Assembly (NCBI RefSeq): GCF_054482525.1
Contig: NZ_CM137006.1
Length of the DNA stretch: 64,000 nucleotides
Strand: one strand, 5' to 3'
In this document: in pieces, positions 1 to 44,472 of the stretch
Layout: every line of letters starts with the position of its first letter
Numbering within the stretch: the first letter of the stretch is position 1
Made by a program: the position numbers and the translations under genes
The notes under the pieces: generated by a model
Told to the model about the DNA's origin: nothing
Database searches by the model: none
Seen by the model: the letters and a program-made list of their open reading frames with translations, nothing else

Positions 1-267
1 CGCCGTTTCCTGTTCGAACTTGAGGCGTTCACGTTCGGACTGATACCAGGCCTTACGGTCATGTGGCTCCATTTCTTCCAGTGATGCCGGAACGGGAAGA
101 TCAAGAAAACAGGTCAGAATGTCAGTCACCCGATAGAGTTTCAGCTTGTCATGCCCTCCGGCTGGCTGGATGTTTTTCAGCCTTGCCGCCGCAGTCTGAC
201 GACATATTCCCGCTATCGCCGCCAGTTGATTAATGTTCAGCATCAGATTTTTCAGTTCTCGATCCAT
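1..267 (-). CDS. Putative terminase small subunit / packaging HTH protein, N-terminal part (gene continues past window start)
   Basis: Manual reverse translation from ATG at 267 gives MDRELKNLMLNINQLAAIAGICRQTAAARLKNIQPAGG..., an HTH-containing N-terminus resembling lambda Nu1-type small terminases. GGAG Shine-Dalgarno lies upstream. Not in the ORF track because it is truncated. Confidence 0.4.
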   Translation of the reverse strand, partial: MDRELKNLMLNINQLAAIAGICRQTAAARLKNIQPAGGHDKLKLYRVTDILTCFLDLPVPASLEEMEPHDRKAWYQSERERLKFEQETA

Positions 268-412
268 ACCCGCTCCAGAATGTTTTAAACATGCATCTTG
301 CGAACAACTTTCAGAAGAGGTCAAAAAATGCGCTATATGTTGAGCATAAAACAAGCAAAATTAACATGCCAAAAATAAAAATACTTAAAATTCAATACAA
401 TATGAAGATGAT

Positions 413-492
413 GATGACGAATGAAAATGCAAAAACTAGCCTTTTTCCGCGCCGCTCCCGCCCCGTGGCAGACCACTCCACCGGGAGGACCC
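413..492 (-). promoter_or_regulatory. Conserved satellite element, copy 1, between the capsid terminator and the terminase-like gene
   Basis: About 72 bp (421-492) roughly 90 percent identical to 2955-3026 and in the same orientation. Contains the inverted repeat CTCCCG...CGGGAG with a nested GTGG...CCAC. Confidence 0.4.
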
Positions 493-517
493 GTAAAAAA
501 GGCGGCTGTCGCCGCCC
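493..517 (-). terminator. Rho-independent terminator after the protease-capsid gene
   Basis: Hairpin GGCGGCTGTCGCCGCC (501-516) followed on the minus strand by a T-run (A-run 495-500 on plus), directly after the capsid stop at 524. Confidence 0.55.
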
Positions 518-523
518 TTGTTG

Positions 524-2437
524 TCATGCTCCACTCGATTTCAGTAATCCGCGATAATCGAGGGCCGCGACACCTGCATCTATGCGCACTTTCCAGGCGA
601 CACCATCAACAGTAAAGCCCACCTGCTCCTCAAGATATGGCGTATCCATACCATCAAGATAAGCGACTTCTATTGTGTCCATCCCCTTAGCTGCGGCTAC
701 ATACCATTCCTTGCTATTGGCCTTATCAAGACGTGGCTCAACAATTACTTCTGCCATATCTTTCACCACGTTAATGATGCCGGGGTTCTGATTGATAGTG
801 CTCTCATCACCAACCGGAAAGACTGATGACGATGACAGAATGGCGCGACGCGCGGCAGATTCCAGCGCGGCAGGGACCAGAACAAAAGCAGGGGTAATAT
901 TCAGTGAGTCGCCGTTAGCATCCTCCTGGAGGCGCATCAGCTTACGGGCTTCATCAAGCCCCACCATGTCCATATCCTTCGCAATAAGATTTTTATGATC
1001 GGCATGGAATAACGCTTTACCATCCGTAAATTTGCCGTTGCTGGTTAACAGAAGATAAACCAGATTACCTACTGTTCTGGCGGCCGCACGCCCCATCGCC
1101 ATGGGGATTGTAGTTAACTGGGTCAGGTCATCGTTGATAATGGCCTGACGGGTAACAGAAAAAATATTACCGTATGTGGCCAGCGCAATAGGTACACCTT
1201 TATCGCTGGTGGTGATGTATTTATATTCCGCACCTTCCGGTACTTTATCCAGCTTTGAAAAACCATTCAGACCAACGCGCTTTGCTTCATGAAAGTTTGA
1301 AAGCGATCCGGTACGCGTCCATTTCTGGAACGTTTCGCCGCTGTCCTGCCAGCCTTTCAGCACTGATTTTTCAGCACCACCAGCCAGAATATGAGAAAAA
1401 TCGCTGCTGCTGTGTGTGAAAGCTGCATTAACGACCTGCGAGCGATTTAAAAAACTGCCAACACTGATACCACGATCAGTTAGTGATGCCTGGGCCATTT
1501 CAAAAAGGCTCATCATCGCGTAAGGATTTCCCCGCTCTGGGCGTTCATACCCAAGACGAGAATAAAGCCCCTGACGAATTGCATCGCCTGTTATGTTCCC
1601 GTTACCGGCATAAATATGAGTCGGGATATTTTTATTGGATGGCGTGGACTCGCGCCCCAGCTCGTTCAACAACTTTTCACGGGCCATCTCCGGTGTACAT
1701 GATGCATCCTCCAGGCACGCCATTTTGATCCCGTCGTAACGACTGCCGAACAGGCTAAACACTTCACTTATTCCGTTGATGCGCTTCTGTTCATTACCAG
1801 CAATATTGGCTGCTCCCTGTGGCGGGGTAATCATTCCTTTAATGGTTTCAGGCATGTGTGAAAAATCTCCTGTGCGTTTCGATTCAATTCGCGCCATTGC
1901 TGTGACAGATGGCAACAATTCATCAGCAAAACCGTGCTTAAGGCATTCTTTCCCGTCCATCCAGGTTTCATCTTCCAGCATGGCGGTAATTTCCTGTGCT
2001 GATTTGCCCGTTTTTCTGGCATAAGCAGGGACTAACACGGTTTCCACCTTATCCAGCAAATCAGCATAATCACGCATATCACCAGCATTTCCGCCAGAGA
2101 TACCCCACGGCTTATGTATCATCATCATGGCGTTTTCCGGCATCACAACACGATCGCCAGCCATTGCGACAACCGAAGCCATTGAAGCCGCAACACCATC
2201 GATATAAACCGTAATTTCTGCCGGATGATTCCGTAACAGGTTATAGATGGCGATGCCTTCAAACACGTCACCACCTGGCGAATGGATCCGCAGGTCGATA
2301 TGTGAGACATCGCCCAGGGCTTTCAGGTCTTCCGCAAACTGCTTCGCGGTAATACCGAAGCCGCCAATTTCTTCATAGATGGATATTTCTGCCGCTCCGC
2401 GAACACCCAGCGCCTTAATGGTGTACCAGTGATTCAT
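524..2437 (-). CDS. Prohead protease (ClpP/S14-like) fused to HK97-fold major capsid protein
   Basis: 637 aa. N-terminal 200 aa carry ClpP-like motifs (GVAASMAS with the catalytic serine context, HKP histidine). The C-terminal ~400 aa resemble HK97-family major capsid proteins. Confidence 0.7.
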   Translation of the reverse strand: MNHWYTIKALGVRGAAEISIYEEIGGFGITAKQFAEDLKALGDVSHIDLRIHSPGGDVFEGIAIYNLLRNHPAEITVYIDGVAASMASVVAMAGDRVVMPENAMMMIHKPWGISGGNAGDMRDYADLLDKVETVLVPAYARKTGKSAQEITAMLEDETWMDGKECLKHGFADELLPSVTAMARIESKRTGDFSHMPETIKGMITPPQGAANIAGNEQKRINGISEVFSLFGSRYDGIKMACLEDASCTPEMAREKLLNELGRESTPSNKNIPTHIYAGNGNITGDAIRQGLYSRLGYERPERGNPYAMMSLFEMAQASLTDRGISVGSFLNRSQVVNAAFTHSSSDFSHILAGGAEKSVLKGWQDSGETFQKWTRTGSLSNFHEAKRVGLNGFSKLDKVPEGAEYKYITTSDKGVPIALATYGNIFSVTRQAIINDDLTQLTTIPMAMGRAAARTVGNLVYLLLTSNGKFTDGKALFHADHKNLIAKDMDMVGLDEARKLMRLQEDANGDSLNITPAFVLVPAALESAARRAILSSSSVFPVGDESTINQNPGIINVVKDMAEVIVEPRLDKANSKEWYVAAAKGMDTIEVAYLDGMDTPYLEEQVGFTVDGVAWKVRIDAGVAALDYRGLLKSSGA

Positions 2438-2643
2438 TGCTCCCCCCCAGATGCAAAACCATTCTTATCAAGCCACGCGTTAACCGCGTGTCTGACAATC
2501 TGCGCCGCACCTGGTAATGGTTGGTCAGGATGATGATTTATGTGGTCGATCCTGTACTGCTTAAGGCGCATAACGGTCTGCGCATCCAGATGAACGGAAC
2601 CACCTTTTACCTCGCCTGTGTTCAGGTCGTTAATACAATTCAC
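2434..2643 (-). CDS. Small hypothetical protein upstream of and overlapping the capsid gene
   Basis: 69-aa ORF with a GTG start preceded by AAGAGGAAG, overlapping the capsid start by 4 nt. Function unknown. Confidence 0.4.
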   Translation of the reverse strand: MNCINDLNTGEVKGGSVHLDAQTVMRLKQYRIDHINHHPDQPLPGAAQIVRHAVNAWLDKNGFASGGEQ

Positions 2644-2743
2644 AGTAACTTCCTCTTACTGACTAAACTGCGCGCATTATTGATCGATAAAAGTGGTAGA
2701 TAAACATATTTCTATCATAAAAATAGATTAATCAGATTCAGAC

Positions 2744-2769
2744 ACAAAAAAGCCGGAGAGAATCCGGCA
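2744..2769 (-). terminator. Rho-independent terminator (minus strand) inside the SSB-capsid intergenic region
   Basis: Hairpin GCCGGAGAGAATCCGGC (2752-2768) followed on the minus strand by TTTTTT. Confidence 0.5.
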
Positions 2770-2954
2770 TAAATATCCCGCCATCTGAACACGTTTTGCA
2801 CAGGCAACTCCATCTGGCAGGTGAAAAACAAATTTATTTATATATTTCAATTAATTGCAAACTGGTCTAATGACAGGGAGAAAAAAATATTGTACAGGTG
2901 AAAACAGAAATAACTTTTAATTATCAATAAATTACTACACATGCTGCCGCCGCC

Positions 2955-3026
2955 ATGAAAATGCAAAAACCAGCCTTTTTCCGCGACGCTCCCGCCCCGT
3001 GGCAGGTCACTACACCGGGAGGACCC
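2955..3026 (-). promoter_or_regulatory. Conserved satellite element, copy 2, between the SSB terminator and the capsid operon
   Basis: Direct repeat of 421-492. The same CTCCCG...CGGGAG dyad is retained. Confidence 0.4.
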
Positions 3027-3052
3027 ATAAAAAAGCCGGATTGCTCCGGCTT
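3027..3052 (-). terminator. Rho-independent terminator after the SSB gene
   Basis: Hairpin AGCCGGATTGCTCCGGCT (3034-3051) followed on the minus strand by a T-run, just 3' of the SSB stop at 3067. Confidence 0.55.
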
Positions 3053-3066
3053 CTGTTACTCGTTGC

Positions 3067-3489
3067 TTAAAACGGTATGTTATCCCCGTACGGATCATCA
3101 TTTCCCGCCTGTTGTTTTGCTCTGCTCAGTGCATCAGTAGCCTGCCCCTGTTGGCCTTTTTTGCCGCCCGGTCGCGCCGTTCTCGCACTGATTACGCTGT
3201 CTGCGATAACCTGCCAGCCCTGCCGCGTCTCCCCGTTCTGTCCGGTCCACTGGCTCACCTGCATGTTACCCGCCACGCTCAGGAGTTCACCCTTGCGGTG
3301 CTTTGCCAGTGCTTCGGCCTGTCTGCCAAACGCCAGGACGGATAACCACATCGTCGCCGTTCCGTCATCTGCCTGGCTGCACGGAAGTGGGACCGCCATA
3401 CTCGCCATCGTCATTTGTGTACCCTTGCTGGTGGTCTTTAACTGCGGGTCAGCCACCAGCCGCCCGTAAGCCGCTATCTGTGCTGTCAT
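3067..3489 (-). CDS. ssb: Single-stranded DNA-binding protein (phage/plasmid type)
   Basis: 140 aa. OB-fold core WLSVLAFGRQAEALAKHRKGELLSVAGNMQVSQWTGQNGETRQGWQVIADSV parallels E. coli SSB [52 protein letters not shown]. Gly/Gln-rich linker and acidic tail DDPYGDNIPF. Confidence 0.75.
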   Translation of the reverse strand: MTAQIAAYGRLVADPQLKTTSKGTQMTMASMAVPLPCSQADDGTATMWLSVLAFGRQAEALAKHRKGELLSVAGNMQVSQWTGQNGETRQGWQVIADSVISARTARPGGKKGQQGQATDALSRAKQQAGNDDPYGDNIPF

Positions 3490-3731
3490 GCTGTCTGCTC
3501 TCCGGTTTTAACGTTGATGGTTGTCACCTGTTCCGCTTCGGCAATCTCCCGTTCTGTCAGCGTGGCAAAGTTTGCAGCTGCCGTTGTCATGAATGAGCTA
3601 ATCAGTTCGGGATGTGCTTTCGCATATCCTTCCCCGGCGTTGCGGTCGATGATTTTTATCGACACCCTTAACCAGTGTTCCGTCAAATCAAGGGCGTGCG
3701 ATTGTGATTTTTTTGTGTGCTTCGCTGTCAT
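3486..3731 (-). CDS. Small hypothetical protein between the origin and ssb
   Basis: 81-aa ORF whose stop overlaps the ssb start (ATGA). No recognisable motif. Confidence 0.4.
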   Translation of the reverse strand: MTAKHTKKSQSHALDLTEHWLRVSIKIIDRNAGEGYAKAHPELISSFMTTAAANFATLTEREIAEAEQVTTINVKTGEQTA

Positions 3732-3782
3732 AGGCTTTATCTCACAGCAGTAAATTAAAATTTTTGCGTTTTAACCCTTCAC

Positions 3783-4005
3783 CTGTTCACCTTTTGATAT
3801 TTTATCTTTTAATTCATAATGTTAAGGGGTGAACAGTTTCACAAAAACTATTCACCAACTGTTCACCACTGTTCACCCTTGAAGCTCAATAAACAATCAA
3901 AAAGGTGAACAGTGAATAGTTTGGTGAACAGTTCATAAATAACTGTTCACCCTATAACATACTGATACAAAAGATATTTATGACAGGGTGAACAGTGGTG
4001 AACAG
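3783..4005. repeat. Iteron array, putative satellite origin of replication
   Basis: Nine copies of GGTGAACAG or its complement CTGTTCACC at 3783, 3828, 3859, 3869, 3904, 3923, 3943, 3987 and 3997, separated by AT-rich spacers, immediately 3' of the replication-protein gene. Confidence 0.7.
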
Positions 4006-4018
4006 TTATTCCATAAGT

Positions 4019-5851
4019 TTAATTTTTGCTATCGTCATTAGTGACCGATACACATGATGGCATCCAGTCTTCTGATTCCTCCGTCAGTGTCACGTTTGAA
4101 CGCAAACCGTGCTTCGTTTTCCGTTTCATATACTCCCTGCCATATTCCGCCATTGCCCCCGGCATATCTTTACCGAAGCGCGTCAGTGTTACAGGTTTAC
4201 CAAACCCATGTGCCCTCATATAAGCCAGATAGGCATGATAGAGATACCTGCGTGGGCTGAATGGCACAATTTCAGCATTACCCACTAACAGGCCATCACA
4301 CATTACCGACGCCATGAGATAGCCGCAGAAGTCCACCAGCGAATCACCTTCACGCTTTATCGCGAGTGCTTCTTCTGATTTCTGCTGCTCATATAAAAGG
4401 CGTCTGGCTTCGTCCTGGTCAGCAAACCGTGTAAGCAGATGGCGAATCACTACCGCCAGCTCACCTTCTATTTTTTCCGCCAGCATTGGATCACGTTCGT
4501 TCTCCGGTACAACTTCCGAAAAATTGAATATCACCCGACGACGTGAGATCCCCCCGCTGCGGTCACTGAATGACATGGCGTTATTGTTAACCGCCAGCAC
4601 TACTGCCGGAATACGCGTTGAGTAGGGGGCTTTGTGTTTCGGGTCAATTGCCACCTTGTCACCGCCTGTAATAGCCTTAATCCCTGCCCCATCACCAGCG
4701 TAGCGGGTCATATCCGGCATGATAATCAGCGAAAAGCCAACCACTAACGCGCGTTCCCTTGCATCTTCCAGCGCCTTCATGCTTGCCGATACTGTGTTGG
4801 CCTTACCCGCCAGCATGGTGCAAATCTCCGCCATCACGCTTTTACCACTTCCCCCTGGACCTGTTACCTCAATGAATAACTGCCAGTCGTACCGGTTCGC
4901 CAGCACCATGAATAATGCAGCCAGTACGCGATCCGCCTTGCGGTCATTCTCAGCCACCGAACGGCGTAACCACTTCCAGAAATTCGGCGCATGTGTTGCC
5001 AGCGTTTCCCCCTCTGCTGGTGGGCTGAAAGGTAATTCACTGGCAATTAACAACCAGTCGTTTTTGTTATGCTCCCGAAAATTACCTGTTCTGGTATCAA
5101 ATACCCCGTTACTGAATCCAATCAGGTTACGGGCTGTATTCCCCATTACAGGCAAACTTAACTTCATGGTATCGACCGCCGATTTAATGGCGTTCTGCGA
5201 ATAGCTGATCTCCGCATCAATGAAAATCTGTGCCATAGCTCGCTGTAATTCTTTATCCTGTACTGGCTCCCATACAACGCCGTTGTAATGGTGAACAGTG
5301 TCAGAGTCAGCATGAATCGCCAGTTCACCGCCATAATGTGCCAGGAGAACTTCGCCGCGTTGACTTGCTCCCATCTGGTTAAGCGCCAGTGATGAAGCGT
5401 TATCGTCTTTTACCCGCTCTTTTTTCTTTACAGGCAGTTCAACTACCTTTTTCTTTTCCGCCAGCTCTGCCCGTTCACGTTCCAGATATTCGCGCCAGTT
5501 CTCCCGTTTCTGGCTGTGCATTCCTTCAGGGTAATAATCAGCATCCCTGACACCTGCCGCTGCCAGTTTCTGCCCGATGGTATTAACAAGCCCCGGACGC
5601 AATAACCCCGCCTGATAGAGACGCACGCGATAGCGTCCGTCCGGTACGATTTGCAGGTTGTCCAGTTCGGCAAGTTGTTGCTCTCCAAGCCAGACAGGTG
5701 GCACGTTATCGCCAGCCAGTCGCCCGTCCTGTTCCTGCCACTGATTCGCATGTGCCCACGCATCACTACCCGCAAAAATGATGACTTCCGTCATTTTGTC
5801 ACGCGGCTGGTGTTTTAAATTTGGCGCTTTTTTCATTTCTGCTCTCTCCAC
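4019..5851 (-). CDS. Replication initiator, P4 alpha-like primase/helicase family (D5_N plus SF3 NTPase)
   Basis: 610 aa with Walker A GPGGSGKS and the general architecture of phage/plasmid primase P4-family C-terminal domains. Sits next to the iteron array. Confidence 0.7.
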   Translation of the reverse strand: MERAEMKKAPNLKHQPRDKMTEVIIFAGSDAWAHANQWQEQDGRLAGDNVPPVWLGEQQLAELDNLQIVPDGRYRVRLYQAGLLRPGLVNTIGQKLAAAGVRDADYYPEGMHSQKRENWREYLERERAELAEKKKVVELPVKKKERVKDDNASSLALNQMGASQRGEVLLAHYGGELAIHADSDTVHHYNGVVWEPVQDKELQRAMAQIFIDAEISYSQNAIKSAVDTMKLSLPVMGNTARNLIGFSNGVFDTRTGNFREHNKNDWLLIASELPFSPPAEGETLATHAPNFWKWLRRSVAENDRKADRVLAALFMVLANRYDWQLFIEVTGPGGSGKSVMAEICTMLAGKANTVSASMKALEDARERALVVGFSLIIMPDMTRYAGDGAGIKAITGGDKVAIDPKHKAPYSTRIPAVVLAVNNNAMSFSDRSGGISRRRVIFNFSEVVPENERDPMLAEKIEGELAVVIRHLLTRFADQDEARRLLYEQQKSEEALAIKREGDSLVDFCGYLMASVMCDGLLVGNAEIVPFSPRRYLYHAYLAYMRAHGFGKPVTLTRFGKDMPGAMAEYGREYMKRKTKHGLRSNVTLTEESEDWMPSCVSVTNDDSKN

Positions 5852-6132
5852 GCGGCAATCATGTTTTTCAGTTCCTGTAGTTTTTTATCAACATCCATAC
5901 ATGACACATGGTTATTTCTGGAAAGCGGGATTTCCCGCCTGAATCTGCTAATAAAGATCTCCACGTTCAGCGAACTATGAAATGAATAGCCATCACGAAT
6001 AAAATACACACGGTCAAACATCAGTTCTTTTACCGTTACTCTGTTACCGTTCTTATCCAGATAAATAGCGCCGGGGATAATTTTGGGGTGTGCATAACCG
6101 CTGGCAGTCAAGCCAGATAAATATGTTCTCAT
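5833..6132 (-). CDS. Small hypothetical protein of the replication operon
   Basis: 99 aa, Shine-Dalgarno GGGGA upstream, 3' end overlaps the start of the replication gene. Confidence 0.45.
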   Translation of the reverse strand: MRTYLSGLTASGYAHPKIIPGAIYLDKNGNRVTVKELMFDRVYFIRDGYSFHSSLNVEIFISRFRREIPLSRNNHVSCMDVDKKLQELKNMIAAWREQK

Positions 6133-6138
6133 GATTAT

Positions 6139-6451
6139 TTATCCCCGATTTGAATCAGTATTCGCTTTCTTTATGGCATTTAATGCATCTGTGGCATTTT
6201 CAATGGTGCACCGTAACGAAATATCAAACTGCCCAAGCATTGCCAGTAACAAACCGATATTACCCATATCAATGCGCATAGCCTTTTCGTCATAGTCCTC
6301 ATTTTCTGACGCATGCCACATCAGGCTACCAATTGACGCAATACCCATTGATATATTGTCAGTAGCCCCATCCGCAGCGGAATAAACCTTTTTAGCAATA
6401 TCATGCTCACAGTTAAAATGCGGATTAATCAGGTACTGGTAATTTGACATA
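6139..6451 (-). CDS. Small hypothetical protein of the replication operon
   Basis: 104 aa starting [15 protein letters not shown]. The ORF-track entry 6139..6894 is longer, but its 5' extension is Pro/Arg/Leu-rich junk. The ATG at 6451 overlaps the TGA of the upstream gene. Confidence 0.45.
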
Positions 6452-6991
6452 TCAGGCATGGCACACCCCCTGGCGAATACGGGCGGCGAATACAGCAACA
6501 CAACCGGACGGGCAGCGGTTACGCGCTTCACGTTCCGTCCAGGCGGTGACGTGGATGATTTGATGGTCTGACGCGCCAAAGATGATAAAGCGCCAGAGAA
6601 AGGCGGTTTGAGAATGTACAAGGGTAGGGATAGTAGCCATGTTGGCAGCCTCCTTTGACAGTGAAGAATTTCCACCGCAGGAAACGCCAATTTCGCTGGC
6701 GGTGGACTGAACGGGGTTGGCGTAACCGGCGTCAAAGGGAACCGGCGCTTCCGAAGAAGCCCCCGCCCAGCCCACCATAACTTTGATGTGAGCGAATGCG
6801 GACGATAAAAAAGACGCTGGCGCGTCATATATCGCCTTTGACATTTCCAGGACGCCAATCCCGGCACCAGATTTTGCTGGTGCGGATAAATCATAGCCCT
6901 GGCTTGCAGTGGCGATCAACTGGTTTTTTACACCCGCTTTATTCAGGTTGTGCGAGTCCCGCCCTTGCGGGTGTGTGGTATGATTTCTCAT
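6452..6991 (-). CDS. Hypothetical protein, first gene of the replication operon
   Basis: 179 aa from ATG at 6991 with GAGG Shine-Dalgarno. This is the 3' part of ORF-track entry 6452..7741, whose upstream part overlaps the operators and the plus-strand regulator gene. Stop overlaps the next start. Ala/Gly/Ser-rich, no recognised motif. Confidence 0.35.
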
Positions 6992-7088
6992 AGCGACCTC
7001 GATACTATCGTTATCGTTGGTGGTTAGAAGCCCCGTTACTGCTCCAACAGTGCGGGGTTTCGTCGTTTCTGCACCTTGCATCAACAAG

Positions 7089-7140
7089 GTGTTGAACACC
7101 AATGTAAACTCAGGTGTTGAACACGTCAAGTGTTGAACAC
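7089..7140. promoter_or_regulatory. Three direct copies of the 11-bp near-palindrome GTGTTGAACAC (operator array) in a divergent promoter region
   Basis: Copies at 7089-7099, 7114-7124 and 7130-7140, between the minus-strand operon start (6991) and the plus-strand small gene (7191). Confidence 0.5.
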
Positions 7141-7190
7141 TTGTTTTTTTTCCTGCATACTGCATTTGTTTTTTGTGAGGGGTACACAAC

Positions 7191-7370
7191 ATGGCGACAA
7201 AAGCAGTAAACGCAAAATCACAAACAGTTGCGGCAAGGGTTCCGCATGAAGTTATGAACAATGTTGAGGCGGTAAAAATGCCTGGTGAAAGTACAGGGCA
7301 ATTTGTAACAGCAGCATTAAAGCGAGAAGTTGAATACCGCCAGCGACGCAAGGCTAAAGAGCAAGAATAA
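7191..7370 (+). CDS. Putative ribbon-helix-helix DNA-binding regulator
   Basis: 59-aa [62 protein letters not shown] found by manual translation; it is below the ORF-track length cutoff. Strand-helix-helix pattern, directly downstream of the operator repeats. Confidence 0.4.
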
Positions 7371-7427
7371 TCACTATCAGCGCTGTGGTGTGAGGTACTC
7401 CGGCGCATTGCTTTACAGGTCGGCACT

Positions 7428-7637
7428 ATGAGCAAAAAATACCTATCCACTGAAGAGATTTTCGCAGAACAACGAAGATTGCTTTTACAGAGCATTGTTG
7501 CACGCCAGAAAGAAAAGGCACACGCTAAACAAATGCCACCAAATACAGAACCAGCGCCTACAAAATTTGCGCTTGATGAGTTTCTCAATAAACAGCCCCG
7601 GGTAATGAAAGCTAACAGGAACCGCCCACCAGGCTGA
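7428..7637 (+). CDS. Small hypothetical protein co-oriented with the RHH gene
   Basis: 69-aa ORF followed by a terminator. Confidence 0.3.
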
Positions 7638-7701
7638 TCACATTGCCCACCAGCCAGCAAATCGCTATGATGGCTGGGCTTATGTTTAGTGTATTCCCAC
7701 T

Positions 7702-7733
7702 GGCGACCTCTGATCCGGGTCGCCTTTGTTTTA
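7702..7733 (+). terminator. Rho-independent terminator, possibly bidirectional between the plus-strand genes and alpA
   Basis: Hairpin GGCGACC-tctgatccg-GGTCGCC followed by TTTGTTTTA. Confidence 0.5.
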
Positions 7734-7751
7734 TGTGTCATATGCCCCCCT

Positions 7752-7961
7752 TTACGCTGCCTTGCCTGAATTAATGCGATCCCGGCTTTTAACCCATTCC
7801 ATAACCTCGGACAGCAGCCAACCTACAGAACGACCGCCCAGATTACGGCGTGACGGGAAATTCCCTTTTTTCTCCAGTTCATAGCGTGTAGTGCGACACA
7901 CTCCAGTTAACTTACGACATTCATCCTCACGGATTACGCGATCTTCATTTATTTCACGCAT
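7752..7961 (-). CDS. alpA: AlpA/Vis-family transcriptional regulator (excision activator)
   Basis: 69 aa. KSVGW...E.EW core motif and size match AlpA of CP4-57 and Vis of P4. Position next to int is typical. Confidence 0.65.
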
Positions 7962-8380
7962 ACAAAAACCTACATAAAAAATTACGTATATAAACTTTTC
8001 TCTTAGCTGTAGATATATGAGATCGGATATTACTTAGATTCTTTTTTCACCTCTTAAATTAAAAACACAACCTTGCTAAAGGCTTTGTTCGCTAAGGTTC
8101 GTAGAAGCTCGTTAGTGTTTAAAATCGTGTCACGAGTTTTTAAGCGATGCAACAAAAAATGTCGTTATTTGGCATTACGCTTGAATTATCTCATTAAAAA
8201 CAAATAGATAAACCATCAAGTGTTGGAACAATCAAGAAACAGAGAATAAAAGTTCAGAAGAAGACATTCCAATTTTTTGATGGTTGACATATATAAAGCG
8301 AAGATATTTGCAGATATTTTCCGATATTCTACGATTTATTCACGGCTGTAATCTCTTAAAGAAAAAACAGCCGTAATTTG

Positions 8381-9619
8381 TCAAGAATTTTGGGTGTAAA
8401 TTCGCGGGGTCATAACAACGATTTTTTTATCATTGTTCTGGAGAAGCTCGAGACGGTCTACCCATAGATTAAGAGCATCACGTTTTGCATCAAGATAACG
8501 GGAGTGGTTATAGACTCGTTGCATCCCCGGCATCTGGTGGGCGGTAAGCTGCTCGACAATATGCGGATCCACGCCTAAATCGTTCAGCATGGTTGTAAAT
8601 GTGTGCCGGATATCGTGTAACGTCCAGGGGGCTTGATTAATTCGTCTGTGCGCTGTTCTTCCGTACTCTGCTACCGAAGATTGTCCTTTCAGTTCACCAA
8701 GCAATAAGCCTGTGTGTCTGTTCTGCTCCACCAGTTGCGTGACGAACGGCAAAATGCTTTCCGGTATTGGCCTGAATATGGCGACCTTCGTTTTGCTGTG
8801 CTCCTTCGGTACTGTCCAGAGCATTTCTTTAAAATCCCACTCCTGCACCTCAGAGCGCCTTAGCTCAGTGGTACGGCATCCAAAAACAATCAGGAGGCGA
8901 ATTAGGGCGCTGTAGTATGGCGGGAATATTTTGTCATCCAGGGCGCGGAGTAATTCCCCAAGCTCCTTATTTGTTAGTACGCGCTCGCTCACTTCTGCTT
9001 TTTTTCCCACATCACCGACAACCATATCATCAAGAACGTTGCTGATTGCGTATCGTCGTTTTCGGCAGTACTTAAGCGCCTGTTTGCATACCTGTAGCAA
9101 AAATCCGGCAGATACTGGGCTTCGCTTTGCCATCTGGTCAAAACATGCCAACCAGTGCCGTAGCTCGCATTTTTCCAACGGCAAAGCGCCAATCTGGCTG
9201 ATTATGTGTTTATTGATCCGGCTTTTCAGTGATTCGTAGTCAGTGCGCTTTTCCTTTGCATACGATTCAAGCCAGTAAGTGAGCGCTTCCTTAACTGTCA
9301 CGGGGGCTAACGCATCCTGTACAGCACGATTAAGCTCATAGCGCGGATTTTTCCCCTCAGCCAGCCAGGCGCGACACTGTGCTGCTTTTTCCCTGGCTGC
9401 TTTCAGGCTCAGATCGGGATAATTGCCCAGTCTCAGACGTTCCGGTGATACCTGCCTACCAGTTCCGGCCCTGTAAGTGAAATACCAGGTTAACAGGCCG
9501 CTGGTGGAATGTCTTACGCTAAGATTGCCACCGTCATTAAAAAAGGCGTTTTTTGTGGTTGGTGATCCGCTTAATTTTCGTAAAAGAGTGTCGCTAAGTC
9601 TATGAATTGCGCTGCTCAT
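8381..9619 (-). CDS. int: Tyrosine site-specific integrase (P4-type)
   Basis: 412 aa. C-terminal catalytic motifs HDIRHTF and RVYNHSRY (tyrosine nucleophile context), N-terminal arm-binding region. Confidence 0.85.
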   Translation of the reverse strand: MSSAIHRLSDTLLRKLSGSPTTKNAFFNDGGNLSVRHSTSGLLTWYFTYRAGTGRQVSPERLRLGNYPDLSLKAAREKAAQCRAWLAEGKNPRYELNRAVQDALAPVTVKEALTYWLESYAKEKRTDYESLKSRINKHIISQIGALPLEKCELRHWLACFDQMAKRSPVSAGFLLQVCKQALKYCRKRRYAISNVLDDMVVGDVGKKAEVSERVLTNKELGELLRALDDKIFPPYYSALIRLLIVFGCRTTELRRSEVQEWDFKEMLWTVPKEHSKTKVAIFRPIPESILPFVTQLVEQNRHTGLLLGELKGQSSVAEYGRTAHRRINQAPWTLHDIRHTFTTMLNDLGVDPHIVEQLTAHQMPGMQRVYNHSRYLDAKRDALNLWVDRLELLQNNDKKIVVMTPRIYTQNS

Positions 9620-10023
9620 GTTTCGCGTTTCCGGTCATCAAAATTAACTACACCATTGACTACACCGTGCATCGTACAAGGGCAAACCGTGACGAACAAG
9701 AGCGAACAAGGAAAACAAAATTTTCCTTTATAATCATAGCGATGAATGCACACAAAACACTACCACGAACACCCGCGAACACTAGATGATAAATAACTAT
9801 CATCTATCGTTGGCATCAGCGACATCTGTCACATTCCTGTCAATAGCGTTAACTGCTTCAAATTTTTGATTCATACCTGCCCCCTGGCCCCTGTCAAATG
9901 CTTGACGGCTCGCCCTAATTCTCTAAATTGTATTTCTAGAGTTGGCGAGGTTTTGAACAGCCCCCTCTCTGACCCCGGTTTATTCCATCTTACTTGTATA
10001 AGATTTGCGAAGGATGTCGAAGC

Positions 10024-10248
10024 ATGGAAAAGGGTACTGTTAAGTGGTTCAACAATGCCAAAGGGTTTGGTTTCATCTGCCCTGAAGGCGGCGGCGAAGA
10101 TATTTTCGCTCATTATTCCACCATTCAGATGGATGGTTACAGAACGCTAAAAGCTGGACAATCCGTTCAGTTTGATGTCCACCAGGGGCCAAAAGGCAAT
10201 CACGCCAGTGTTATTGTGCCCGTCGAAGTAGAAGCGGCAGTCGCATAG
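10024..10248 (+). CDS. cspD: Cold-shock-like protein CspD
   Basis: 74 aa starting MEKGTVKWFNNAKGFGFI with cold-shock domain motifs. ORF-track start trimmed to the conserved start. Confidence 0.85.
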   Translation: MEKGTVKWFNNAKGFGFICPEGGGEDIFAHYSTIQMDGYRTLKAGQSVQFDVHQGPKGNHASVIVPVEVEAAVA

Positions 10249-10320
10249 CTCTTCTGTCTCATTGTGTACATCCTAAAGGCAAAATGCCAGCCCGATCGGC
10301 TGGCATTTTTATCTCAAAAA

Positions 10321-12267
10321 TTACTCTCGTGCCAGAGCATCTACTGGATCCAGTCGTGCCGCATTTCGTGCGGGTAACCAGCCAAATAAAATCCCGGTGA
10401 CCGTCGAGCAGAGAAACGCCAGCAGCAGCGCCAACGGTGAAAAACCAATCTCCCAGCCGGGTAAGAAAAGCTGCAAGGTGAAAGCAATTAACAGTGACAG
10501 TGTTATTCCCAACGCGCCACCGACCAGGCAAACCAGTACGGCTTCGATCAGAAACTGTTGCAAAACATCGCTTGCTCGCGCACCTACAGCCATGCGAATG
10601 CCAATTTCCCGCGTCCGCTCGGTCACTGACACCAGCATAATATTCATTACACCAATACCGCCCACCACCAGTGAAATCACCGCCACCAGCGTCAGAAACA
10701 GTTGTAAAGTACGTGTGGTCTTTTCAACGGTTTTCAAGACGCCGTCCATGTTCCAGGTAAAGAAATCCTTCTTACCGTGGCGCAGTAAAAGTAAACGCGT
10801 GAGTTGCTGTTCCGCCTCAGCGCTGTCAAATCCTTCTTTCACCCTGACAGTAATGGAGTTCAGCCACGACTGGCCCATAACTCGCCCGGACATCGTGCTG
10901 TAAGGTAGCCAGACACGCAGCACTTTACTGCTACCAAACATCGACTGTTTTTCTTCCGCCACACCAATGACTCTGGCGGGCATATTGCCGACCAGAATCA
11001 CCTCGCCAACCACATCTGCTTTATGGGGGAAAAGCTGGCGGCGAGTATTACTGTCGAGAACCACGACCTGCGCACGACCGTTCAGCTGCTCCTGATTAAA
11101 GGTGTTCCCTTCACTGAAGGTCATGCCATAGACATTAAAATAATCGCCGCTCACGCCATTGGCACTGGCAGCCACATCAACATTGTTATAACGCAGGCGC
11201 AGGTTTTGCGAGACGGCAGGTGTGGCTGAGGCGACCCACGGTTGTTTTTGGATGGCGATTAAGTCGTCGTACTTCAGCGCCTGCTGATATTGCGGATCGT
11301 CATCGCCAAAATCTTTCCCGGGATAGACATCAATAGTATTCGTACCAATAGAACGAATATCCGCCAGCACCATTTGTTTGGCGGCGTCGCCCACCACGAC
11401 AATGGAAACCACCGACGCAATACCGATAATAATCCCCAGCATGGTCAGTAAAGTACGCATTTTATTCGCTGCCAGCGCCCGCCATGCCATCGTCAGCGCC
11501 TCGTTAAAACCGCTGACAAACTGCCGCCAGCCAGAGGCCGTGTTGACAACAGGTTCCGTCCCGCCAGTAGCATTCACTTTTTCAACGGCGGGAGGATTGC
11601 GCACAATTTCGCCGTCGCGAATTTCGATCACCCGCTCGGCCTGAGCAGCGACCTGCGGATCGTGGGTAACGATAATCACCGTATGCCCGCGATCGCGCAG
11701 CTGATGCAGGATCGCCATCACCTCTTCGCCAGAATGGCTGTCCAGTGCGCCGGTCGGTTCATCGGCAAGAATTACCTGACCGCCGTTCATCAATGCCCGC
11801 GCGATGCTGACGCGCTGTTGCTGACCACCCGAAAGCTGTGCCGGATAATACTCTGTACGGTCTTCCAGCCCCAGTCGTTGCAGCAACTCCTGGGCGCGAA
11901 GCAGCCGCTGTTTCCGCTCAAGACCAGCATAGACGGCGGGTACTTCAACGTTCTGCTCGGCGGTTAAATGCGAAAGCAAATGGTAACGCTGGAAAATAAA
12001 GCCGAAATGCTCGCGGCGTAGTTGCGCCAGCGCATCGGCGTCCAGCGTGGCAACATCCTGACCGGCGACGCGATAGGTGCCGCTGGTGGCCTTATCCAGG
12101 CAGCCGAGAATATTCATCAGGGTCGATTTACCGGAACCCGAAGCGCCGACAATCGCCACCATCTCACCAGCATAAATATCGAGGGTGATGCCCTTCAGCA
12201 CCTCAACCTGCTCATCACCGGCAGGATAGCTGCGACGAATATCCTTTAATTCGAGCAAGGGCGTCAT
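10321..12267 (-). CDS. macB: Macrolide export ABC transporter ATP-binding/permease MacB
   Basis: 648 aa with Walker [18 protein letters not shown] signature and C-terminal FtsX-like permease. Overlaps macA by 4 nt. Confidence 0.9.
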
Positions 12268-44055: not shown

Positions 44056-44214
44056 ACGCTTCCCTCTGCAAAGTGAGCCTTCAGTCTAAAACTTTTCACT
44101 GTATTGTGTTTAACAGTTATAGCTTTTAGCAATTAATGCAACAGGTTAAACCTACTTTCAGCGAATACATTTTAGCGTGATCATTACAGGCATAAATCTA
44201 TGAGGAGAGAAATA

Positions 44215-44472
44215 ATGCAAACCGTTATTTTTGGTCGTCCGGGTTGCCCTTACTGTGTGCGTGCAAAAGATCTGGCTGAGAAATTGAGCAATGAACGCGA
44301 TAATTTTCAGTATCAGTATGTTGATATTCGTGCGGAAGGGATCACTAAAGAAGATCTACAACAAAAGGCAGGTAAACCCGTAGAAACCGTGCCGCAGATT
44401 TTTGTCGATCAGCAACATATCGGCGGCTATACCGATTTTGCTGCATGGGTGAAAGAGAATCTGGACGCCTGA
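44215..44472 (+). CDS. grxA: Glutaredoxin 1
   Basis: 85 aa from MQTVIFGRPGCPYCVRAK with CPYC active site. Confidence 0.9.
   Translation: MQTVIFGRPGCPYCVRAKDLAEKLSNERDNFQYQYVDIRAEGITKEDLQQKAGKPVETVPQIFVDQQHIGGYTDFAAWVKENLDA

Follow-up and report, generated by a model that had tools for sequence, protein, structure and literature searches.

Site-specific integration of a PICI-like satellite at a probable non-tRNA attachment site between clpS and cspD in Escherichia coli

The stretch of DNA analyzed here (64,000 nucleotides of contig NZ_CM137006.1, referred to below as the window) carries most of a satellite element immediately to the left of the chromosomal gene cspD. Between the start of a tyrosine integrase gene (9619, minus strand) and that of cspD (10024, plus strand) lie 404 bp (9620-10023), in agreement with the distance of about 400 bp given in an earlier note on this DNA. 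The satellite totals ~10,990 bp between two copies of a short core sequence, and the window holds its positions 1-9785, with genes on the minus strand almost throughout. Position 1 is already inside the element, and the left end with the distal core is ~1.2 kb beyond it. This distal end was read from strain EC13, which is 100% identical to window positions 1-9800, and from strain 266917_2. On the chromosome, the small open reading frame (ORF) yljB and cspD adjoin the integrase side of the element, and clpS and clpA adjoin its distal side; the minus strand encodes yljB, the integrase, and nearly all the satellite genes as well as clpS and clpA (Table 1).

Table 1 Features of the element, its junctions, and the flanking chromosome. 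Positions refer to the window unless a locus is named; L003 covers the distal end of the element and L002 is the uninterrupted K-12 locus.
Feature	Position	Strand	Remarks
terS-like DUF1441 gene, 5' part	within 1-9785		matches terminase small subunits
ClpP-protease/major-capsid fusion	524-2437
ssb	3067-3489
D5_N/Pox_D5 primase	4019-5851
DUF4222 and Icd-like genes	within 1-9785		Pfam, PHROGs, RefSeq annotation of the EC13 element
AlpA-family regulator	7752-7961	minus	PF05930, E = 2.9e-16; phrog_2790 "excisionase and transcriptional regulator"
Tyrosine integrase, 412 aa	8381-9619	minus	N-terminal arm-binding domain and catalytic domain
Integrase-proximal arm (P arm), element DNA	9620-9785		no counterpart in empty-site genomes
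Tandem ACTACACC repeats	9647-9654 and 9659-9666	plus	candidate arm-type integrase binding sites
CGAACAA, two copies	9693 and 9703 (9693-9709)	plus	10-bp period
CGAACAC, two copies	9766 and 9776 (9766-9782)	plus	10-bp period; end 3 bp before the core
att core	9786-9803		18-bp direct repeat ATGATAAATAACTATCAT
Integrase-side junction	9786-9803		actag ATGATAAATAACTATCAT ctatcg
Proposed recombination site C/O/B'	9788-9808		GATAAAT-AACTATC-ATCTATC; 7-bp overlap at 9795-9801
OxyR-consensus match, candidate clpS-clpA operator	9793-9829		37 bp, 15/20; starts at the crossover block
yljB, 24-codon small ORF	9800-9874	minus	RefSeq annotation and translation
CRP-consensus-like sites	9818-9833 (8/10) and 9847-9862 (7/10)		inside yljB, upstream of the cspD promoter, native DNA
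Predicted cspD core promoter	9902-9929	plus	TTGACG 9902-9907, 16-bp spacer, TAAATT 9924-9929
cspD coding sequence	10024-10248	plus	RefSeq annotation
Element in L003	L003 4814-15785
Distal core copy	L003 4796-4813		ATGATAGATAACTATCAT, one mismatch
clpS-side junction			ccac ATGATAGATAACTATCAT ttatat
ACTACACC pair of the other arm	L003 4889-4908 (starts 4889 and 4901)
CGAACAA, three copies in the other arm	L003 4915, 4925, and 4935
Single attB copy, K-12	L002 3001-3018		ccac ATGATAGATAACTATCAT ctatcg

The integrase combines an Arm-DNA-bind_3 (DUF4102) domain (PF13356, E = 1.4e-16, residues 8-96) with a Phage_integrase domain (PF00589, E = 2.6e-18), both found with Pfam, and its catalytic residues R249, H335-x-x-R338, H361, and Y370 are invariant among five aligned integrases. 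Given these domains and residues, "P4-type", the term used in the earlier note, is a fair label for its architecture. The AlpA-family regulator encoded nearby is probably the excisionase or directionality factor, judging from the role of its family.

The limits of the element can be read directly from aligned genomes. When window positions 9400-10400 were compared with 5426 complete E. coli genomes, those free of the element matched from query position 387 (= 9786) onward, which puts the satellite-chromosome junction inside the 404-bp interval, where the earlier note had expected it. The whole query, and with it this integrase junction, was matched in 364 of the 5426 genomes; the element is carried by 6.7% of them (about 7%), and clpS-cspD is uninterrupted in 5057 (~93%). 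Comparison with the uninterrupted K-12 region, which the note had proposed as a way of finding the breakpoint, located it at an 18-bp core (9786-9803): in the ~367 genomes that split a K-12 clpS-cspD query, 364 of them with this integrase junction, the two halves overlap at query positions 282-299. A matching direct repeat at the far end of the element, also called for in the note, was found outside the window, ~1.2 kb beyond position 1, with one mismatch. In empty genomes, a single copy of the core is found 85 bp upstream of clpS, where it overlaps the yljB stop codon. The core sequence is printed in no paper that we found, nor did the literature searched describe an integration site at cspD or clpS, and the satellite papers examined do not discuss an insertion between yljB and clpS. 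The attB/attP pair is newly delimited, and the event is ordinary site-specific integration.

The same comparisons limit the position of the crossover. In all five elements that share the core, core position 7 is a G beside the bacterial flank and an A beside the element flank, and the base following the core is a C on the bacterial side and a T on the element side. Since both polymorphic bases follow their flanks, the crossover falls within ATAACTATCAT (9793-9803, 11 bp). The attB reads GATAGAT-AACTATC-ATCTATC, with inverted 7-mers that agree at 7/7 positions around a 7-bp spacer, and the reconstructed attP reads GATAAAT-AACTATC-ATTTATA, with an inverted-repeat symmetry of 6/7. This symmetry suggests AACTATC as the probable overlap, within the 11 bp to which the comparison of flanks confines the crossover. 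Read in the same 7-7-7 way, the relative found beside pntB (locus L013) shows only a poor inverted repeat.

The element DNA between the integrase and the core is conserved in five diverged elements and aligns with the corresponding arm of an island located between phoQ and roxA, discussed below. Both arms of the element contain the same repeats in the same order, namely, two copies of ACTACACC and three to four copies of CGAACAA/C in each arm. ACTACACC occurs only four times in 128 kb (both strands), two of the occurrences being those at 9647-9666. These repeats are invariant across the five elements, and variants of them are found in relatives whose integrases are 53-82% identical. From this repetition and conservation, ACTACACC and CGAACAA/C are likely to be the sites bound by the arm-binding domain of the integrase and by accessory proteins. 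At 9778-9763, a weak terminator-like hairpin falls on the CGAACAC repeats; it probably reflects chance.

P4-architecture integrases often target tRNA or tmRNA genes, and the earlier note, which saw no such gene in the interval and placed the attachment core in intergenic DNA, regarded its absence as unusual. In the complete 64-kb window, and likewise in the loci covering the distal end of the element, ARAGORN detected neither tRNA nor tmRNA genes. A search of 9300-10400 with Rfam returned no RNA gene; its sole match, which was below threshold, was cspA-like, coincided with the cspD mRNA, and began at 9919. The core is therefore intergenic and not derived from a tRNA, as the note had proposed. 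One could still imagine that the site is a degenerate tRNA-derived att site or, as the note itself allowed, that the true attB is a tRNA at the distal end, since serW (tRNA-Ser), which ARAGORN detected as a positive control in locus L006, lies in the neighborhood beyond clpA. However, ~3 kb, including clpA and clpS, separate serW from the distal core, no tRNA was found at the distal junction, and the same 18-bp core fully accounts for that junction. We give a tRNA origin next to no probability.

The relatives of the integrase argue in the same direction. Their genomic context, obtained by a protein search and contig look-ups, places one relative beside pntB in E. coli (82% identity to the window integrase), others in the rcnR/rcnB region of E. 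coli and Salmonella (62-67%), and one beside a yhdJ-like methylase in Citrobacter (53%). Across the sampled relatives (53-82% amino-acid identity), no tRNA occurs within 2.5 kb of the integrase, so the absence of a tRNA is to be expected for this integrase lineage. The premise of the earlier note is thus borne out for the architecture of the protein but not for the supposed oddity of a site that lacks a tRNA. Among deposited phages, the best integrase match is 47% identical. Neither the single protein nor an alignment of five sequences retrieved a relative from species-representative genomes, and direct evidence for use of the site is therefore limited to E. coli. The integrases of satellite P4 and prophage CP4-57, the classic examples of this architecture, recombine in the 3' ends of tRNA-Leu (leuX) and tmRNA (ssrA). 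The present system resembles theirs in having Arm-DNA-bind_3 (DUF4102) and tyrosine-recombinase domains, an AlpA-family partner, and an element of satellite size, but its target is not an RNA gene.

The note had also raised the possibility that the cspD promoter had partly been replaced or displaced by the insertion, in which case cspD expression would differ between strains with and without the element. The junction does lie in the upstream region of this stationary-phase toxin-like gene, 220-238 bp from its ATG, the right edge of the core (9803) being 220 bp upstream. All 238 bp from the start of the core (9786) to the start of cspD are nevertheless native DNA. Compared with the empty-site genome CFSAN061771, positions 9786-10400 contain a single difference, the element-derived base of the core at 9792. 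Two further differences from K-12 within 9786-10025 (240 bp), at 9884 and 9887, are shared with CFSAN061771 and are therefore lineage polymorphisms. The only promoter-like site starts 98 bp to the right of the core, and both of its hexamers are conserved in seven genera. The two CRP-like sites lie within blocks conserved across genera. Their spacing agrees with that of the CRP sites reportedly described for cspD by Uppal et al. in 2014, and on this basis they are tentatively assigned to the regulation of cspD.

The predicted −35 and −10 hexamers, both CRP-like sites, and all of the blocks between yljB and cspD that are conserved in seven genera are thus found on the native side of the junction. 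Damage to the cspD promoter is not supported, and by these alignments cspD appears to keep its full native control region. An effect on cspD could still arise in another way: the element arm is now only 14 bp from the distal CRP-like site (9818-9833), and DNA bending or transcription out of or into the arm could act from there. We nonetheless consider it very unlikely that cspD has lost promoter sequences and is expressed differently for that reason. The ORF on the other strand of this region is preserved as well. yljB was found by ribosome profiling and is among the small ORFs validated by western blot (PMC10117436; PMC8921622). Its stop codon corresponds to core positions 15-17 and its last 4 nt lie in the core, and the ORF is intact after integration.

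It is on the opposite side that the neighborhood changes. The end of yljB and clpS are separated by 98 nt in empty genomes and have 11 kb between them in carriers. Since the clpS-proximal 85 bp of the intergenic region are moved 11 kb away by the insertion, the upstream context is altered for clpS (and clpA) and not for cspD. An outward-facing promoter-like site near the left end of the element (L003 4874-4847, TTGACG-16-CATAAT) was considered as a replacement clpS promoter, but its −10 hexamer is poorly conserved among the elements and this role is speculation.

The DNA under the core also resembles a regulatory site. We scanned the whole 64-kb window with the classical Toledano consensus for OxyR, ATAGnTnnnAnCTAT-n7-ATAGnTnnnAnCTAT, which has 20 specified positions. 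The best match (17/20), at 44119-44155, lies 57 bp upstream of grxA, a textbook OxyR target, and provides an internal positive control; the second best is the match that starts at the crossover block (9793-9829, 15/20). Its strong half-site, ATAACTATCATCTAT (9793-9807, 9/10), straddles the crossover, and only this locus and that of grxA reach a half-site score of at least 9/10 in the window. Among 5000 shuffles of the native 238 bp, six reached 15/20. In orthologous clpS regions, which were obtained through ClpS homologs, the half-site scores 9/10 in Salmonella, 9/10 in Klebsiella, and 8/10 in Pluralibacter, although the surroundings have diverged; a weaker version occurs in Cronobacter and none in Erwinia or Serratia. 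A Fur box was rejected as the identity of the palindrome, the match (10/19) being at background level.

clpSA has been listed as induced by OxyR, 4.1-fold in a scavenger-deficient strain (PMC10751367; see also PMC8115020), and H2O2 raises the signal of a PclpS reporter (PMC7617757). Once the element is integrated, the integrase side holds the full match, and the clpS side is reduced to 12/20. It is therefore conceivable that the integrase targets an OxyR operator of clpS-clpA and that integration splits it, thereby altering the peroxide induction of ClpS and ClpA or bringing the integrase under OxyR influence. The second half of the 37-mer is weak (6/10), however, and by eye the sequence that follows the site on the integrase side offers no good −10. 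In an alternative register in which the strong half-site is the distal one, the clpS-side junction falls only from 13 to 12 of 20: the ATTTAT of attP mimics the ATCTAT of the host, and the clpS side keeps nearly all of the match. We consider it about as likely as not that the core covers a real OxyR operator. That integration splits such an operator with either of the above consequences is a tentative idea, which we think is probably not correct. We judge as unlikely the proposal that the integrase cuts this operator through its strongest half-site, with the peroxide response of carriers either altered or preserved through mimicry by attP. For a measurable regulatory change in carriers, we see about one chance in four.

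As for its gene content, the element, at ~11 kb, fits the broad description of phage-inducible chromosomal island (PICI)-like satellites: an island of about 10-15 kb with int, alpA, a primase/replication module, packaging-related genes, and flanking att repeats. It does not have the complete gene set of the capsid-forming cf-PICIs, which are defined by their own capsid, protease, portal, head-tail connector/adaptor, HNH, and small and large terminase genes and which have no tail genes. Of this set, only the protease-capsid fusion and the terS-like DUF1441 gene are present; no portal, large terminase, HNH, connector, or head-tail adaptor gene is annotated in the element (L003 4814-15785). "PICI-like satellite", the name of a loosely defined class, is the safest label. 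The element also carries an "ash family" pseudogene. The integrases of the five elements that share the core are 87-100% identical at the nucleotide level, and the cargo and replication modules of these elements differ. Three of the five, with integrases 87-92% identical in nucleotide sequence, carry PerC-family regulators, antiterminator Q, and ProQ/FinO as cargo and have a DUF927 primase and a RepA helicase as replication genes.

Whether such an element still moves can be approached through its attP. When the reconstructed attP was compared with viral-metagenome contigs in IMG/VR, there was one match, a contig of 10,780 bp (L020). At one point of this contig, a core with G links the clpS flank to the left end of the element (attL). 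Some 10.5 kb later, a core with A links the integrase-side arm to the left end of the element, which is exactly the predicted attP; the contig ends 112 bp past this junction. The sequence data thus show that an attP junction exists. The same junction is present in none of the 5426 complete E. coli genomes, which makes a common tandem array unlikely as its source and an excised circle or replicating form more likely. A tandem duplication in that one metagenomic strain could also have produced it.

It might be proposed instead that the element is a defective remnant that is inherited vertically and no longer moves by site-specific recombination. The lack of annotated portal, large terminase, and head-tail adaptor genes, the "ash family" pseudogene, and the presence of the element in only 6.7% of genomes would be compatible with this proposal. 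On the other hand, neither the integrase ORF nor the AlpA ORF is disrupted, and conservation extends to both arms and both cores. Strains from varied hosts and sources also harbor very different satellites at this one site, which points to repeated acquisition or the exchange of modules, and the attP junction appears in a viral-metagenome contig while being absent from all of the complete genomes searched. We therefore regard a fossil as quite unlikely.

The most informative relative is a cf-PICI-type island between phoQ and roxA, found in O157:H7, with a full capsid and packaging set; we take it to be EcCIEDL933. Its integrase belongs to the nearest other E. coli integrase class (79% nucleotide and 76% amino-acid identity; ~700 genomes). 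Its integrase-proximal arm shows homology throughout to that of the window element, with the ACTACACC pair, the GAACAAG repeats, and TTTATAATCA in common; the two align up to ...AACACTAAnTGATAAA and then diverge at the overlap. Homology to empty-site genomes starts in this island at the core AAATATGTCC, which begins in the phoQ stop codon, and the comparison indicates that its integrase recombines at the 3' end of phoQ. The attP of this island, GATAAAA-TATGTCC-TTTTATC, has inverted 7-mers that agree at 7/7 positions, a perfect 7-7-7 arrangement. The two systems share the proposed core layout, an attB that is not a tRNA and abuts a stop codon, and a similar module order (int-alpA-...-DUF4222-primase-ssb). 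They differ in the overlap (TATGTCC versus AACTATC) and in the target (phoQ/roxA versus yljB/clpS intergenic DNA). The phoQ-roxA island also encodes capsid, protease, portal, head closure, connector, HNH, and small and large terminase proteins, whereas the window element has only the protease-capsid fusion and the terS-like gene.

More distant comparisons place the site in a known framework. As with phage lambda, there is a direct repeat of the core at both ends of the element (here with one mismatch) and a single copy at the empty site, and the proposed arrangement includes a short overlap, inverted core-type sites, long arms with repeated arm-type sites, and a small candidate directionality factor. 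The sequences are unrelated to those of lambda, and the overlap and the assignment of proteins to sites are deduced here from symmetry and conservation. Upon integration of e14 and phage 21 in icd, and of the SaPIs at the end of guaA, the 3' end of the target gene is rebuilt. Integration at the end of a protein gene whose end is restored is a well-known pattern, and by analogy the site at yljB seems to follow it: the core overlaps the last bases of the ORF, and the element supplies an equivalent end that leaves the gene intact. Unlike in those cases, the gene here is an ORF of only 24 codons with just 4 nt in the core, and what is conserved beneath the core may be a regulatory palindrome and not the end of the coding sequence.

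Taken as a whole, the interval 9620-10023 is best explained as the attR of an ~11-kb PICI-like satellite that occupies a unique, non-tRNA attB in the clpS-cspD intergenic region, a reading of site-specific integration to which we assign a probability of roughly 0.88. A tyrosine integrase of P4 architecture would recombine a predicted 21-bp site, with the 7-bp overlap AACTATC between inverted 7-mers. AlpA would likely act as the excision factor, and the arm repeats would serve the arm domain of the integrase together with accessory proteins. The breakpoints, the duplicated core, the bounds of the crossover, the occupancy of the site among genomes, and the attP junction come directly from the sequences; the exact 7-bp overlap, the ligands of the arm repeats, and the role of AlpA are deduced. 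In this model, integration rebuilds the end of yljB, leaves both yljB and the whole cspD promoter region native, and inserts 11 kb of satellite genes, in the same orientation, between yljB and clpS-clpA.

From a biological perspective, the expected consequence of the insertion is corrected: the control region of cspD is native, and it is the upstream context of clpS-clpA that is altered. The precise attB/attP pair belongs to a set of E. coli satellites that have swapped cargo around one integration module, and it should aid the annotation of such islands. Landing sites elsewhere may also be predictable, as the site is nearly identical in Klebsiella and the OxyR-like half-site is conserved in Salmonella. 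The integrases of the window element and of the phoQ-roxA island, 76% identical and flanked by homologous arms but acting on different 7-bp overlaps and targets, offer a compact natural case of a shift in specificity. If the overlap with an OxyR operator is real, carriage of the satellite would be tied to the oxidative-stress regulon. If, beyond that, integration does alter the operator, ~7% of sequenced E. coli would differ in the peroxide induction of ClpS and ClpA and, through it, in Dps turnover and iron handling.

The 26-nt block at 9847-9872, AAAATTTGAAGCAGTTAACGCTATTG, lies inside yljB, the small ORF between clpS and cspD, and shows no variation across seven genera (columns 272-300 of the cross-genus alignment A4). 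Judging from this alignment, the constraint on the block looks to be exerted at the level of DNA rather than protein, because the yljB frame is shifted in Klebsiella, Pluralibacter, Erwinia, and Serratia by a 1-nt deletion immediately ahead of the block, although the block itself is invariant. In Klebsiella, a second indel brings the frame back, and the same TGA ends the ORF. The block coincides with a putative CRP-like site for cspD.

Elsewhere in the window, the CRP consensus TGTGA-n6-TCACA is matched twice at 9/10, at 21520-21535, directly upstream of the poxB ORF (21554), and at 3828-3843, a position in the satellite that is flanked by the primase gene and the ssb-side genes. The consensus scan of the 64-kb window for OxyR returned as its top match (17/20) the sequence at 44119-44155, 57 bp upstream of grxA (CDS 44212-44472); this match, presumably the known grxA operator, was the positive control of the scan.

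On the cspD side of yljB, the Rfam cspA thermoregulator model gave a sub-threshold match at 9919-10312, which scores 41.6 bits (E 4.6e-9) where the gathering score is 78, spans the full length of the model, and takes in both the 5′ UTR and the coding sequence of cspD. It probably reflects CspA-family homology and not a common thermosensor. On the clpS side, the 5′ leader contains a hairpin, CGGCAG...CTGCCG, located outside the window (minus strand, about 2940-2960 of L002, the K-12 clpS-cspD region). The hairpin is kept in Salmonella and carries compensatory changes in Klebsiella (CGACAG...CTGTTG), which suggests that the leader RNA is structured and that clpS transcription starts upstream of the hairpin.

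The left end of the satellite, beyond the window, was read in the identical element of strain EC13, where a terminator-like hairpin and a promoter-like site were found (see table); in a comparison among elements, the -35 of this promoter-like site was conserved and the -10 was variable. The DNA directly past clpA varies between EC13, 266917_2, and Ec-042, and serW was not found by ARAGORN in this region of strain 266917_2.

Features at the left end of the satellite and in the region beyond clpA
Feature	Locus and coordinates	Strand	Strain	Position
Promoter-like site, TTGACG-16-CATAAT	L003 4874-4847	minus	EC13	directed out of the element toward clpS
Terminator-like hairpin, strong, 11-bp stem	L003 5307-5282	minus	EC13	follows the last satellite gene, upstream of the promoter-like site
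Type I-F cas1/cas3 and CRISPR array	L003 1-1871		EC13	beyond clpA
Second integrase and two annotated 'RtT sRNA' repeats	L001 4849-6583		266917_2	beyond clpA
Ordinary serW-infA arrangement	L006 4473-4560		Ec-042	beyond clpA

Within the satellite, a mechanical ORF list places two long ORFs in 6139-7741, at 6452-7741 (429 aa) and 6139-6894 (251 aa). Neither is annotated as a gene by RefSeq in the EC13 element, where this interval is instead given to small genes, Icd-like and hypothetical, along with a YlcI/YnfO gene and a pseudogene of the 'ash family'. Finally, the viral-metagenome contig L020 (IMG/VR UViG_3300019373_000108, 10,780 bp) extends from within clpS via attL and an entire satellite to the attP junction. 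Its middle, the capsid region at about 1140-4190 in reverse complement, has no match to the element of the window, which points to the satellite of L020 being another cargo variant.
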